Source: a virus
Length of the DNA: 64,000 nucleotides
Virus record (IMG/VR): IMGVR_UViG_3300013772_000002
Coordinates: 1 to 64,000 of that record
Strand: one strand, 5' to 3'
Position 1 is the stretch's first letter. Each line of letters begins with the position of its first letter. The translations under genes and the position numbers were made by a program. The notes under the pieces are model-generated. The model did not search any database. It was given only the letters and a program-made list of their open reading frames with translations, and was not told the origin of the DNA. Positions 7,613 to 12,652 of this stretch are shown here, piece after piece.

Positions 7613-8134
7613 ATGAATCTCACCACGAAAGACATCGAGCGGTTTTGGTCGTATGTCGATGTACGAGAGTGTGACCAGTGTTGGTCGTGGACGGGGCATA
7701 TGACCCATGACGGTTATGGAGACATGAACGTCAAAGGAAAACATCTTCGTGTCGGTCGCATCGCATATTACCTCGAGTATGGCACGATCGATTCCAAGTC
7801 ACTTATTCGTCATTCATGCGACAACACATCCTGTGTCAATCCACGTCACTTACTTCAAGGGAATAAACTGCAAAATGCACAGGATATGATATCGCGTGGA
7901 CGTCAGTCGTCGGGAGAATGGTGTCCCTCCAAACCCAAACTCTCTCTCGAGATCGCTGCCGAGATCATCAATCGTCATGAGGGCGGCGAATCGAAACATG
8001 CGCTCGCAAGGTGCTTCGACGTAGATGTGAAGCAGATCATCCGCATCGTTCGTGGTGAGAGCTGGAAAGATGCCCGCATGCTTGCTTATGTCAGTCGCCT
8101 TGCTCAATCACTTGACTTGCCAGTCTTTCCATGA
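7613..8134 (+). CDS. HNH endonuclease with C-terminal HTH
   Basis: CWSWTG...GYG...IRHSCDNTSCVNPRHL motif; AAGGAG RBS; promoter at 7548. Confidence 0.88.
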   Translation: MNLTTKDIERFWSYVDVRECDQCWSWTGHMTHDGYGDMNVKGKHLRVGRIAYYLEYGTIDSKSLIRHSCDNTSCVNPRHLLQGNKLQNAQDMISRGRQSSGEWCPSKPKLSLEIAAEIINRHEGGESKHALARCFDVDVKQIIRIVRGESWKDARMLAYVSRLAQSLDLPVFP

Positions 8135-8900: not shown

Positions 8901-9491
8901 TTGATGATCGACGCGAGCGTTGGTAGGCGTGTCTTGGTTGCCTGTGAATTTTCGGGCATTGTACGAGACGCCTTCCTGTCTGTCGGTTGCGATGCTCTGT
9001 CCTGTGACTTCCTGCCTACCGAGAGACCCGGTCCGCACTACCAGGGTGACGTGCGCGATTTGCTCGGGGATGGTTGGAACCTAATGATCGCGCACCCGCC
9101 CTGTACCTATCTGGCGGTAAGTGGGGCGCGCTGGTTCAAGGATCGACGTGGCGAGCAGGCAGAGGCGCTGGACTTCGTTCGTCTCCTCATGGACGCACCG
9201 ATCCCGCGCATCTGTATTGAGAATCCGGTGAGCGTCATCAGTAGCGCGATCCGCCGTCCCGATCAGATCGTCCAACCGTGGATGTTTGGACATGGCGAGA
9301 CGAAAGCGACGTGTCTCTGGCTAAAGAACCTCCCGCCCCTCACGCCGACAAATGTTGTGGAGGGGCGGACACCTCGAGTGCATCTCGCATCGCCGGGACC
9401 AGAGCGATGGAAGGAGCGGAGCAGGACGCTTCCGGGGATTGCGGAGGCGATGGCGAATCAATGGGCAGCAGTAGAAATGAGAATTTCTTGA
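8901..9491 (+). CDS. Short phage DNA cytosine methyltransferase-like protein
   Basis: VLVACEFSG, HPPCT, IENP and RSRT..GIAEAMA motifs. Confidence 0.75.
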   Translation: MMIDASVGRRVLVACEFSGIVRDAFLSVGCDALSCDFLPTERPGPHYQGDVRDLLGDGWNLMIAHPPCTYLAVSGARWFKDRRGEQAEALDFVRLLMDAPIPRICIENPVSVISSAIRRPDQIVQPWMFGHGETKATCLWLKNLPPLTPTNVVEGRTPRVHLASPGPERWKERSRTLPGIAEAMANQWAAVEMRIS

Positions 9492-10267
9492 CTTCATCGT
9501 ACTACAACGATAATGGTATCACCCTCTATCACGATCGGTGCGAAGTCATCTTGCCGACGCTTCCTGACTGCAGCGTGGACATGGTTCTTGCTGATTTGCC
9601 TTACCAGCAAACGAGAAACACTTGGGACTCCGCCATCGATCTCGACTTCCTCTGGCCACAATATCGTCGCATCGTCAAGCCGAACGGCGCCATCATTCTT
9701 TTCGGTCAAGGGATGTTCTCTGCCGTCCTGATGATGAGCAATCCCAAAGAATATCGTTATTCCTTGATCTGGGAGAAAGATCGTCCGACCGGATTCCTCA
9801 ACGCCAACCGGATGCCGCTCAGGAGCCATGAGGACATCCACGTCTTCTATCGCTCCTTGCCTACTTACCATCCGCAGATGTGGCAAGGAGAGCCGCAGCA
9901 CAGCCGTGGTATCGGGGGCGGCGTCAACGCGAAGAAGACGACCAACTACGGCGCCTATACGAACGATCCTGAAGACCCGCGTGCCGGCAACACCTTGAAG
10001 CACCCGCGCTCGGTACTGCACTTCCCGAAGCCCCACCCGGCGAAGCATCCGACCGAGAAGCCGGTCGCTCTCTGCGCTTACCTGATCCGGATGTTCTCGA
10101 ATCCCGGTGACGTCGTTCTCGACAATACCGCTGGGATCGCGAGTACAGGCGTCGCCTGTCAACACGCGGGAGGACGGCGCTTTATCGGCATCGAGTGCGA
10201 CGAGGAATACTGCCAGATCGCCGTCGATCGTTTCGCCGTGCATAACCCGATGGAACGTTCGGCATGA
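9488..10267 (+). CDS. DNA methyltransferase, N4-C/N6-A (beta class)
   Basis: DLPY catalytic-like motif, HPTEKP, VVLDNTAG, FIGIE; TTG start overlapping the upstream TGA. Confidence 0.88.
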   Translation: MTSSYYNDNGITLYHDRCEVILPTLPDCSVDMVLADLPYQQTRNTWDSAIDLDFLWPQYRRIVKPNGAIILFGQGMFSAVLMMSNPKEYRYSLIWEKDRPTGFLNANRMPLRSHEDIHVFYRSLPTYHPQMWQGEPQHSRGIGGGVNAKKTTNYGAYTNDPEDPRAGNTLKHPRSVLHFPKPHPAKHPTEKPVALCAYLIRMFSNPGDVVLDNTAGIASTGVACQHAGGRRFIGIECDEEYCQIAVDRFAVHNPMERSA

Positions 10268-10974
10268 GTAAGCCAACACACATCGATCTCTTTTCGGGGA
10301 TCGGCGCCTTTTCATTAGCGGCGCGCTGGGCAGGCTTCGAGACGATCCTCCACTGCGAGATTGATCCGTACTGCCAGCGCGTACTCGAAAAGAACTTTCC
10401 GGAGGTGCCCATTCATGGAGATGTCCACACCCTTCGTAATGCCAGGTTCGCCGACCTTCTTACCGGCGGTCATCCCTGTCAACCCTTCAGTGGCGTCGGC
10501 GAGCAACGCGATTTTGCCGACGATCGCGACCTCTGGCCAGAAATGTTTCGCTGCATCACGGAGATACGACCGACATGGGTTGTTGCTGAGAATGTTGAAA
10601 GATTCTCTCGCGTTGGGCTCGATCGCACTCTCTCCGACCTGGAAGGAGCGGGTTACGCCGCAGGGTCGCTCGTATTTCCGGCTCTCGCTGTCGGAGCGCA
10701 GCATCGTCGCCAGCGGACATTCACTCTTGCCTACGCCGGTGGCAAGGGACTGGAAGGGAGCGCCCTCACGAGCAACGCAGAGCATTTGCAAGTACATCAG
10801 GACATTCTTTCCCGATACGACCGGCCGTCCGTACCCCGAGTACTTAGAGGCGGTCATGGGATTCCCCACGCTTTGGACCAAATTAGAGTGCTCGGAAACG
10901 CCATCGTCCCCCAACAATGTTATCCGATCTTGAAACTGATCGCGGATAACATTATCGAGGAACGCGCCGCATGA
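10264..10974 (+). CDS. C5 cytosine DNA methyltransferase, alpha chain (copy 1)
   Basis: DLFSGIG, GGHPCQ, ENV, QHRRQR and LGNAIVP motifs. Confidence 0.9.
   Translation: MSKPTHIDLFSGIGAFSLAARWAGFETILHCEIDPYCQRVLEKNFPEVPIHGDVHTLRNARFADLLTGGHPCQPFSGVGEQRDFADDRDLWPEMFRCITEIRPTWVVAENVERFSRVGLDRTLSDLEGAGYAAGSLVFPALAVGAQHRRQRTFTLAYAGGKGLEGSALTSNAEHLQVHQDILSRYDRPSVPRVLRGGHGIPHALDQIRVLGNAIVPQQCYPILKLIADNIIEERAA
10415..10933 (+). CDS. Overlapping-frame beta chain of C5 MTase copy 1
   Basis: GGAGGT SD at 10401, ATG at 10415; LPTPVA and PEYLEAVMGFPTLWT (motif IX-like). Confidence 0.7.
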   Translation: MEMSTPFVMPGSPTFLPAVIPVNPSVASASNAILPTIATSGQKCFAASRRYDRHGLLLRMLKDSLALGSIALSPTWKERVTPQGRSYFRLSLSERSIVASGHSLLPTPVARDWKGAPSRATQSICKYIRTFFPDTTGRPYPEYLEAVMGFPTLWTKLECSETPSSPNNVIRS

Positions 10975-11903
10975 GTGAACTTACTCACGTCGATCTTTTC
11001 AATAGTGCGCTCGGTTTGCCCGTACCACCAACGCATGTCGATCTCTTCAGCGGCATTGCCGGTTTTGCTCTTTCAGCATCTTGGGCTGGCTTCGAGACGA
11101 AGCTCTTTTGCGAGATCGATCCTTTCTGTCAGAAAGTGATCGCGAAGAACTTTCCCGGGGTACCGATCCATGACGACATTCGTACCCTTATGACCAGGAA
11201 GGAGGAGATGCCTAGTGGATTCAATGGAGCGATCGACCTCGTTACCGGCGGATTCCCGTAGCCTTGCCAACCTTACTCAAACGCCGGTAAAAAGCGAGGT
11301 ACCGACGACCCTCGTGATCTCTGGCCAGAAATGCGACGCGTCATTGCCGCCATCCAACCGCGCTGGGTTGTTGGTGAAAATGTTGAAAACTTCGTCAACA
11401 TGGAACTCGACCGGACGTGTGCCGACCTGGAGGGGGAAGGCTACGAAGTCGGGGAACCGCTTGTTTTCCCGGCTAGTGCAGTTGGAGCGCGGCATCTCCG
11501 TTACCGGACTATCGTTATTGCCCACTCCCGTCGCTTCGGACGCGACGACTGGCAGGATCATTGGTCGGGACGACACCTATCTGATTCGTCCCCATGCGTT
11601 GCCACGCAAGATCAATCGCATGGGTCAGAACGGCTCCGTCGGACTGGCGCGATTGGTGAAGATCGAGGAGGCAATCAGGCTAGGCAAGATGTCCAGGGAG
11701 CAGCCGATTTCGATCTCGGGACGCGACGTCCTTCGTTTGACCGAGGGTCTTGGGGAGTTGAATCCGGAATTCGCCGAGTGGTTGTTGGGGTACCCGACCA
11801 ACTGGACCGCATTAGGGCATTAGGGAATTCGATTTCGCCCTGGCAATTGTACCCCGTCCTCAAGGCGATTGCCGACGATCTGCGATTGGAGCGCGTTACA
11901 TGA
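10971..11903 (+). pseudogene. C5 MTase alpha chain (copy 2) interrupted by an in-frame TAG at 11259-11261 (pseudogene or recoded)
   Basis: Reads GGFP*PCQPYSNAG; ENV, RYR and LGNSI motifs continue in frame to 11903. Confidence 0.8.
11215..11823 (+). CDS. Overlapping-frame beta chain of C5 MTase copy 2
   Basis: GGAGG SD at 11201, GTG at 11215; LPTPVA and LNPEFAEWLLGYPTNWT. Confidence 0.7.
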   Translation: MDSMERSTSLPADSRSLANLTQTPVKSEVPTTLVISGQKCDASLPPSNRAGLLVKMLKTSSTWNSTGRVPTWRGKATKSGNRLFSRLVQLERGISVTGLSLLPTPVASDATTGRIIGRDDTYLIRPHALPRKINRMGQNGSVGLARLVKIEEAIRLGKMSREQPISISGRDVLRLTEGLGELNPEFAEWLLGYPTNWTALGH

Positions 11904-12652
11904 GTGAATTTACTCACGTAGATTTATGTTCGGGAATTGGTGGTTTTTCCTTGGCGGCATGGTGGGCTGGATTTCAAACTATCCTCCATTGTGAGATCGA
12001 TCCCTATTGTCAGAAAGTGCTGGCGAAGAACTTTCCGGAGGTACCAATTCATGACGACATCCACGCTCTTACCGGCATCTCCTCCGCCGACCTACTTACC
12101 GGAGGTCCACCATGTCAGCCATTTAGTAATGCCGGGAAGCGAGTCGGCACGGCAGATGACCGCCATCTCTGGCCAGAGATGTTGCGCATTATTGACGCAA
12201 GCCGACCCACTTGGTGCGTTATTGAAAACGTTGATGGTTTCACCGGAATGGCGCTCGATCTCGTCTGGTCTGATCTGGAAAGCGCGAACTACGAAGTCGG
12301 GGCGGTTGTATTTCCGGCTAGCGCCGTCGGTGCGTGGCATCGCCGCGACCGGCTTTGGGTTATTGCCCACACCCAAAGCGTCGGATGTGGATCGGGGCGG
12401 TCGTGGCGATCTCTTGCAAGCACTTCGGGGAAACAGCAACAAACACTTTCGACGCGCGAGACTCCCGACGGGCGAGAGTATCGCGTCGACCAGTGGACAT
12501 CCGAACCCAGTGTGGATCGAATGGTTCCAGGGCTACCCTCCGAACTGGACATATGTCGACGACGTGCCATCGGAAATTCGATAGTTCCGCAACAGGCTTT
12601 CCCCGTTCTAAGGGCGATCGCTGATAGCCTTCGATTGGAGCGCTCCGCATGA
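11900..12652 (+). CDS. C5 cytosine DNA methyltransferase, alpha chain (copy 3)
   Basis: DLCSGIG, GGPPCQ, ENV, HRRDR and IGNSIVP motifs. Confidence 0.9.
   Translation: MSEFTHVDLCSGIGGFSLAAWWAGFQTILHCEIDPYCQKVLAKNFPEVPIHDDIHALTGISSADLLTGGPPCQPFSNAGKRVGTADDRHLWPEMLRIIDASRPTWCVIENVDGFTGMALDLVWSDLESANYEVGAVVFPASAVGAWHRRDRLWVIAHTQSVGCGSGRSWRSLASTSGKQQQTLSTRETPDGREYRVDQWTSEPSVDRMVPGLPSELDICRRRAIGNSIVPQQAFPVLRAIADSLRLERSA
12051..12584 (+). CDS. Overlapping-frame beta chain of C5 MTase copy 3
   Basis: GGAGGT SD at 12037, ATG at 12051; LPTPKA and PNPVWIEWFQGYPPNWT. Confidence 0.7.
   Translation: MTTSTLLPASPPPTYLPEVHHVSHLVMPGSESARQMTAISGQRCCALLTQADPLGALLKTLMVSPEWRSISSGLIWKARTTKSGRLYFRLAPSVRGIAATGFGLLPTPKASDVDRGGRGDLLQALRGNSNKHFRRARLPTGESIASTSGHPNPVWIEWFQGYPPNWTYVDDVPSEIR

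Follow-up and report, generated by a model that had tools for sequence, protein, structure and literature searches.

In the literature that we searched, two-frame, two-chain C5 cytosine methyltransferases (C5-MTases) are described only for M.EcoHK31I, an enzyme whose alpha chain is 309 amino acids (aa) long. M.EcoHK31I of Escherichia coli HK31, which recognises YGGCCR and was reported by Lee, Kam and Shaw in 1995, as related in two later papers (PMC2836561; PMC3404938), requires both alpha and beta, the beta chain being read from an alternative frame within the alpha gene (PMC2836561; PMC3404938). N-terminal deletions of this beta weaken its association with alpha (PMC2836561), and the predicted target-recognition domain has been placed on alpha (PMC2836561; PMC3404938). 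Here we describe three tandem C5-MTase genes of a phage, each with a second gene nested in its +1 frame, that lie in a window of 64,000 nucleotides (nt) corresponding to the first 64 kb of the 104.8-kb virus record IMGVR_UViG_3300013772_000002 of IMG/VR (completeness estimate 67%). We call the main-frame chains alpha1 to alpha3 and the nested ones beta1 to beta3 (Table 1). With a probability of about 0.75, we consider the three genes to be tandem duplicates, made within this phage lineage, of a two-chain C5-MTase of the M.EcoHK31I type.

Set beside the published description of M.EcoHK31I, the locus shares with it a C5-MTase of two polypeptides, a beta gene that lies wholly inside the alpha gene in another frame, and an alpha chain with motifs I-VIII and X that leaves motif IX to beta. 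It differs in that the variable segment is selected in the beta frame and the alphas, of 236-250 aa, have a disordered spacer instead; in the presence of three tandem copies; and in the setting, since M.EcoHK31I belongs to a restriction-modification system whereas here the genes are those of a phage and stand among five consecutive methyltransferase genes. Another natural two-polypeptide C5-MTase, M.AquI, has its chains encoded by consecutive, non-overlapping genes. It is split in the variable region, and its second chain also carries motif X (PMC3404938). In our genes, unlike those of M.AquI, beta is nested in alpha and motif X is back in the alpha frame; with motif X again on the first chain, both frames of the gene have to be read. 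The C5-MTases of the Bacillus phages SPR, phi3T and rho11s hold several specificities against host restriction by varying the recognition modules only, which are strung on one polypeptide, whereas the phage described here has three genes with one LLPTP module per beta.

A phage relative with the same architecture and of the same family is found in gp62/gp63 of Paenibacillus phage Lily (NC_028841), which are 41% identical to alpha3 and 34% identical to beta3, with beta again in the +1 frame; unlike the phage studied here, Lily has a single copy. The Lily nested open reading frame (ORF) is annotated as 'g62 internal gene', its function not being stated, and the nested gene is unannotated in most other records, for example at ORF40 of Lc-Nu. 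The same two families are represented by phrog_363 (alpha) and phrog_1008 (beta). The architecture (M.EcoHK31I) and scattered annotations (Lily gp63, phrog_1008) are thus already known; new here are three copies in tandem whose recognition segments have diversified, evidence directly from the substitution phase that recognition lies on the nested chain, and a copy in which alpha is broken but beta intact.

Dual coding and selection in the two frames

The alpha frames match the PF00145 profile only at positions 1-170 of 324 (alpha1, E 4e-37, positions 3-170; alpha3, E 1e-38, positions 1-166), and alpha1 matches phrog_363 with an E of 3e-67. Motif I reads FSGIG in alpha1, CSGIG in alpha3 and FSGIA in alpha2, where the second Gly is replaced by Ala, and motifs IV (PCQ, with the catalytic Cys), VI (ENV) and VIII (H/QxRxR) are present in all three. 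Between motifs VIII and X the alpha frame contains a spacer that is unconserved and variable in length. The small domain, made of the recognition region and motif IX, is therefore not on the same polypeptide as motifs I-VIII and X: by motif position, alpha carries I-VIII and X, and beta carries IX. The original prediction had noted that the alpha frame lacks a recognisable target-recognition domain or motif IX over this stretch, which agrees with the end of the PF00145 match at 170/324 and with a spacer that is disordered in the alpha3 model. It had also listed LPTPxA and a G(F/Y)PxxWT block as shared by the nested proteins, and both are found, as LLPTPxAxD and PxxxExxxG(F/Y)PxxWT, in beta1, beta2 and beta3. 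The window betas match phrog_1008 (E 1e-17 to 3e-19; 2e-17 for beta1 and 3e-19 for beta2), beta3 matches 4577 representative proteins at E<=1e-3, and Pfam and NCBIfam searches with the betas returned nothing.

All three tandem paralogues contain a nested +1 ORF preceded by its own Shine-Dalgarno (SD) sequence, exactly as had been noticed from the sequence. The nested stop-free ORFs span 172-202 codons, and the complement to the SD consensus ahead of the beta starts is 7, 7 and 6 nt long for beta1, beta2 and beta3. When the synonymous codons of alpha were shuffled within each copy (2000 shuffles), the +1 frame was stop-free by chance in 0.8%, 1.7% and 0.35% of shuffles for copies 1, 2 and 3, and the +2 frame of the same stretches holds 5, 11 and 9 stops. 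In copies 1 and 3 the codons of the alpha sequence PEVPIHDD supply the beta start (PEV giving GGAGGT and HD giving ATG). As a family-wide rule this start device was rejected, most relatives having the beta start elsewhere, usually with an SD.

To avoid selecting for open beta frames, we fetched 160 related loci by alpha-frame peptide patterns only, and these contained 147 unique alpha cores. In 121 of the 147, the alpha ORF contains motif X, and a +1 ORF without stops between motifs IV and IX contains an LMG(F/Y)PxGW motif IX, so that both frames are conserved across homologues, a check that the original prediction had named. The nested ORF of these 121 loci has a median length of 190 codons; motif IX precedes motif X by 41 nt in 92 of them and is in the alpha frame in none (0/121). 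Over the same stretch the +2 frame of the family loci has a median of 11 stops, and under synonymous shuffling of alpha codons the mean probability of an open +1 frame is 0.027. The alpha frame is likewise open across the spacer, for which shuffling of synonymous beta codons gives an expectation of 0.08 (mean) or 0.02 (median). An SD of at least 5 nt precedes a +1 start in 46% of loci as against 8% of resampled controls. Searches of phage genomes with tblastn placed the matches of alpha3 and beta3 at the same loci, in frames offset by +1, also in distant phages (Lactobacillus phage Lc-Nu, Paenibacillus larvae phages including Lily, Bacillus phage yong1, Mycobacterium phage Che9d and a Porphyromonas phage) at about 41% identity for alpha and 30-40% for beta. 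Related genes come from phages and from bacteria of many phyla.

The two frames are also constrained in different parts of the gene. At four-fold degenerate alpha codons, the entropy of the third position drops from 1.87 bits ahead of the beta start to 1.31 bits within the overlap (Mann-Whitney p 7e-6), and several of these sites are nearly frozen (0.1-0.8 bits) where beta reads F(Q/R)LxPS. Alpha codon position 3 is beta position 2, and alpha position 1 is beta position 3. Four independent pairs of close relatives were compared, and their substitutions assigned to alpha codon positions 1/2/3: the N-terminus that is coded by alpha only gave 29/17/103, the overlap of motifs IV-VIII gave 49/12/73 at half the rate, the spacer gave 104/26/29, mostly at the beta third position, motif IX gave 14/4/3, and the motif X tail after the beta stop gave 10/7/40. 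Along the gene, selection thus passes from alpha to both frames, then to beta and finally back to alpha, which is the order predicted for two separately translated proteins. About 100 codons are under double constraint, an unusually long overlap for two conserved proteins.

These data bear on two other ways of accounting for the +1 ORFs. The first is that a single chain arises by programmed frameshifting, once by +1 behind motif VIII and once by -1 ahead of motif X, with no separate beta. It has in its favour that the +1 block LLPTP...GFPxxWT lies between motifs VIII and X, in the order of an ordinary C5-MTase. A frameshifted enzyme, however, needs neither an open beta frame upstream of LLPTP nor an open alpha frame across the spacer, and would not predict the pattern that we find: the +1 frame is open and protein-constrained for some 60-100 codons upstream of LLPTP, back to its SD and start, and the alpha frame is held open across the spacer. 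No slippery run common to the three copies is present at the junction of motif VIII and LLPTP, and M.EcoHK31I is made as two polypeptides, so that we regard a double frameshift as highly improbable. Lower still we place the explanation that the enzyme is alpha alone and that the +1 ORFs go untranslated, as shadows of its conserved sequence. Conservation in the N-terminal half of beta does largely mirror the alpha motifs (SGQKC over LWPEM, KML over ENV), as a shadow should; yet spacer and motif IX substitutions concentrate on the beta third position, alpha synonymous sites are nearly frozen opposite F(Q/R)LxPS, the +1 frame is open far more often than in shuffled sequences, and an alpha acting alone would have neither small domain nor motif IX. 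The nested ORFs are accordingly best taken, in agreement with the original prediction, as real genes of the M.EcoHK31I kind.

Two-frame coding is therefore under measurable selection in most of the 147 related genes, with recognition and motif IX apparently on the hidden chain. As standard annotation reports alpha only, such enzymes would be cloned, expressed or assigned a specificity wrongly.

Putative recognition segments and the predicted alpha-beta complex

Among 119 sequences, alpha1, alpha2 and alpha3 form an exclusive clade with a support of 0.997, in which alpha1 and alpha3 group together (0.915), and beta1, beta2 and beta3 likewise form a clade (0.815). Both clades indicate that the copies are duplicates made within this phage lineage. 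The alphas are 52-57% identical between copies and the betas 36-42%. From LLPTP to motif IX, the segments of beta1, beta2 and beta3 (about 35, 81 and 47 residues) are unalignable, each following a single LLPTPxAxD module, and such unrelated recognition segments probably confer three specificities, so that three different sequences would be methylated. The segment of beta3, DRGGRGDLxQAxRGNxNKH, is found again in betas that otherwise show no relation, which points to an exchange of recognition modules between genes. A second C5 core within 1.5 kb was found in only 1 of 155 related loci, making tandem arrays unusual in the family. Some relatives of beta (P0007, P0016 and P0147) have 3-5 repeated (L/W)PTPxAxD modules in one chain and resemble multispecific phage methyltransferases.

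We propose that the main frame of each gene would yield alpha and that the internal SD and start in the +1 frame would yield beta. The N-terminal half of beta, encoded over alpha motifs IV-VIII, would form a helix and hairpin that dock on alpha; its C-terminal half, from LLPTPxAxD on, would provide the variable target-recognition segment followed by motif IX. Alpha and beta would then assemble into a complete enzyme, as experiments have established for M.EcoHK31I (PMC2836561; PMC3404938), and the three methylation specificities would protect phage DNA from host restriction. A triple array of this kind suggests how a phage can extend its protection, namely through duplication of a compact dual-coded cassette in which only the recognition segment is then altered.

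The proposal that beta carries a recognition segment that varies from copy to copy gains support from the substitution phase, the disordered alpha3 linker and the three unalignable segments. The further step taken in the original prediction, that alpha and beta chains might be exchanged, finds little in its favour when read as any alpha combining with any beta to give more specificities than genes. Three paralogous alpha/beta pairs do occur in one operon, and the parts at the predicted interface are among the better conserved of both chains. But the frame under selection over the whole variable segment is that of beta, alpha contributing only a disordered linker there, and the small domain makes every specific DNA contact in C5-MTases of solved structure (PMC3404938). 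If alpha offers nothing that could alter specificity, nine pairings would still address three targets. With recognition on beta alone, exchange adds no specificities and would bring at most redundancy or a rescue of beta2, and beyond the existence of copy 2 nothing in our results speaks for chain exchange. We consider such mixing very unlikely, and return to the preferred reading of three two-chain enzymes of the M.EcoHK31I type.

Structure prediction is consistent with a catalytic alpha chain completed by beta. The alpha3 model, folded with 60 relatives, has a predicted local distance difference test score (pLDDT) of 80 and a predicted template modelling score (pTM) of 0.76, with residues 160-212 disordered, and aligns with M.HhaI over 207 of 327 residues (Z 24.7, root mean square deviation 4.6). 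By our reading the aligned part is the large domain of M.HhaI, and the small domain would be absent from alpha, the structural output giving ranges and not domain boundaries. For alpha3 and beta3 together, the complex score is 0.88 as against 0.00 for the best of 3 controls. In calibration, 58 of 80 solved complexes attained this mark, as did 2 of 110 mismatched pairs; these counts are rough here since custom alignments were used. Three runs agreed in at least 86% of contacts, with a partner pLDDT of at least 69, and the pass may partly reflect likeness to solved single-chain C5-MTases.

In the predicted complex, motif IX of beta3 contacts the motif I and motif X regions of alpha3, and a helix and hairpin (beta3 residues 52-113) pack on alpha3 residues 115-157. 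This predicted docking matches the need for the beta N-terminus in the association of M.EcoHK31I beta with its alpha. The least expected error is found for alpha3 134-139 against beta3 87-90, predicted to be neighbouring strands, and these two segments are encoded by the same nucleotides (Table 1), so that the two products are predicted to touch through segments encoded by shared DNA. Alpha synonymous sites in this stretch are almost frozen across the family. Any mutation in it would alter both sides of the predicted contact together. Between copies, residues at the predicted interface are conserved at 59-68% in alpha, as against 52-55% for the rest of the chain, and at 48-50% in beta, as against 36%; about half of the predicted-interface residues of beta nevertheless differ between copies.

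Several points weigh against the reading of the locus as three two-chain enzymes with recognition on beta. Folded alone, beta3 is poorly defined (pLDDT 64, pTM 0.27), and Foldseek gave no PDB match to this model at E<=0.001; beta probably folds only on alpha, which would explain why no usable model of beta alone was obtained. Motifs IX and X were recognised by no hidden Markov model in any frame. In frame-hopping translations that join alpha I-VIII, beta LLPTP-IX and alpha X (P0173 and P0174), PF00145 coverage stayed at or below about 159/324 and PDB sequence matches remained within the N-terminal half, so this test was uninformative. The assignment of motif IX to beta comes from a short pattern and from predicted contacts, the substitution-phase result is based on four pairs only, and the distinct specificities are read from dissimilarity of sequence. 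Placing recognition on beta departs from M.EcoHK31I, the only characterised example, and the translation of beta in this uncultured soil phage is inferred from sequence.

The interrupted second copy

The three genes are not equivalent, as the original prediction had treated them without mention of the difference: alpha2 is broken by an in-frame TAG. The stop lies in a 6-nt insertion relative to the paralogues (CCG TAG), right before the catalytic Pro-Cys, so that motif IV of alpha2 reads GGFP-stop-PCQ. No in-frame start follows the TAG before ATG 11331, which is itself beyond the catalytic Cys, and as written alpha2 would end after 96 residues and is inactive, judging by its sequence. If read through, the frame past the TAG retains PCQ, ENV, H.R.R and GNSI. 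The stop is identical in contigs of two soil samples, the X3 and X4 contigs not spanning 11208-11291. A genome-wide reassignment of TAG was rejected, since TAG is an ordinary stop here and terminates 16 of the 58 long ORFs of the window, and a suppressor tRNA of the phage was rejected as well, the 104.8-kb record having 0 tRNA genes.

Apart from the TAG, the idea that alpha2 is more degenerate than its paralogues is unsupported: it mismatches 4 of 43 family-conserved columns, among them the second Gly of FxGxG and the Gln of motif X, as against 5 of 43 for alpha1. Beta2 matches 8 of 9 family-conserved beta columns; its ancestral start is lost, and a strong SD and GTG occur at a new position. 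Viral contigs yielded no close relative of copy 2. Most likely the loss of alpha2 is recent and beta2 is simply still intact.

Copy 2 can be seen as a natural test of chain interchangeability, and it lends some weight to a limited form of the exchange proposed in the original prediction, in which alpha2 is dead and beta2 is kept as a recognition subunit for alpha1 or alpha3, so that several targeting chains would share one catalytic chain. Evidence for this comes from the position of the TAG in motif IV with no restart before ATG 11331, from the ordinary use of TAG in a tRNA-free record and its presence in two samples, from the conserved columns of beta2 and its own relocated SD and start, and from a predicted interface at which the copies differ less than elsewhere in the chains. 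Set against this, alpha2 is otherwise no worse than alpha1, so that the break may be recent and beta2 not yet decayed, and half of the beta interface residues differ between copies. We regard this orphan role for beta2 as unlikely, though as the most probable of the rival explanations. If true, it would amount to a modular C5-MTase system of a shared catalytic alpha and interchangeable recognition betas, analogous to specificity-subunit exchange in Type I systems, in which new specificities could evolve by duplicating or swapping the nested beta frame only.

A further explanation would keep copy 2 fully functional. The nucleotides at 11256-11267 are CCG TAG CCT TGC, and a hop of peptidyl-tRNA(Pro) from CCG to CCT would yield GGFPCQ, with no trace of the insertion; plain read-through of the TAG would put two extra residues before the catalytic Cys. 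That the insertion is exactly 6 nt, that the TAG sits between two Pro codons so that a hop erases the insertion from the protein, and that the alpha2 motifs after the TAG are intact all fit such a bypass, restoring the canonical GGFPCQ. Pro-stop contexts terminate poorly, and both short hops over stops between matched codons and the bypassing in T4 gene 60 are known. Known short hops are inefficient, however, the take-off (CCG) and landing (CCT) codons differ, and relatives with the same device were not found. Since beta2 overlaps most of the downstream part of alpha2, selection on beta2 alone could also preserve the alpha2 motifs. A bypass of the stop thus seems doubtful, and somewhat less likely than the orphan role; a recent break in one of three duplicated two-chain enzymes remains our preferred account of copy 2.

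At window positions 10971-11060, the N-terminus of alpha2 contains THVDLF twice (MSELTHVDLF...PPTHVDLFSGIAGF), so that the gene begins with a short internal duplication.

Genomic setting and atypical relatives

ATGA stop/start overlaps link alpha1, alpha2 and alpha3. Two further methyltransferase genes lie directly upstream, the second running into alpha1 through another ATGA overlap, to give five methyltransferase genes in a row from 8901 onward (Table 1). The neighbourhood also contains an HNH endonuclease gene of a type common in phages, and the ORFs downstream of the array have no recognised family; no restriction enzyme was recognised among the neighbouring genes. The stretch is present in contigs from four soil-metagenome samples, all of one study; no RNA data set was among the listed matches.

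Table 1. Positions in the window of the methyltransferase array, its nested genes and associated features
Feature	Position	Strand	Description	Signals and motif positions
HNH endonuclease gene	7613-8134
PPC/ENP-type protein	8901-9491		196 aa; phrog_757 match; Pfam search without match
N6_N4 MTase	9500-10267		Pfam N6_N4_Mtase match
alpha1	10264-10974	+	C5-MTase catalytic chain, 236 aa	I 10285; IV PCQ 10474; VI ENV 10588; VIII 10702; X 10894
beta1	10415-10933	+	nested +1-frame gene, 172 aa, ATG start	GGAGGT 10401-10406; LLPTP 10724; motif IX core GFPTLWT 10859-10879
alpha2	10971-11903	+	same gene type as alpha1 and alpha3; in-frame TAG; doubled N-terminal THVDLF and insertion ahead of motif IV
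beta2	11215-11823	+	nested +1-frame gene, 202 aa, GTG start	AGGAAGGAGGAG 11196-11207; LLPTP 11515; motif IX core GYPTNWT 11788-11808
alpha2 in-frame TAG	11259-11261	+	in 6-nt insertion (CCG TAG) right before catalytic Pro-Cys
alpha3	11900-12652	+	C5-MTase catalytic chain, 250 aa	I 11921; IV 12110; VI 12224; VIII 12338; X 12572
beta3	12051-12584	+	nested +1-frame gene, 177 aa, ATG start	GGAGGT 12037-12042; LLPTP 12360; motif IX core GYPPNWT 12531-12551
Shared coding segment	12299-12320	+	encodes both alpha3 134-139 and beta3 87-90

Some related loci depart from the common arrangement. One phage gene (L011:2444-3493) has motifs IX and X in the frame of motifs I-VIII, and is an ordinary single-chain relative with 42% core identity. 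In L012 (compared with L007), L021, L029, L059, L068 and L136 the alpha frame is cut short while the beta ORF runs on, and in L033 the reverse is seen. A public protein of 200 aa from a 7.5-kb contig (P0005) consists of beta3 residues 1-59 fused to alpha3 from ENVDGF on; the fusion points to a 1-nt difference near a GAAAAC run (about 12215-12225 of the window) in another assembly of a near-identical phage, and the start set by the gene caller for P0005 is the beta ATG. Finally, the chromosome of a Roseovarius metagenome-assembled genome (OX638333.1) contains five identical nested alpha/beta loci at different places (L156, L157, L159, L161 and L162), as if they were borne on a multi-copy mobile element or prophage.

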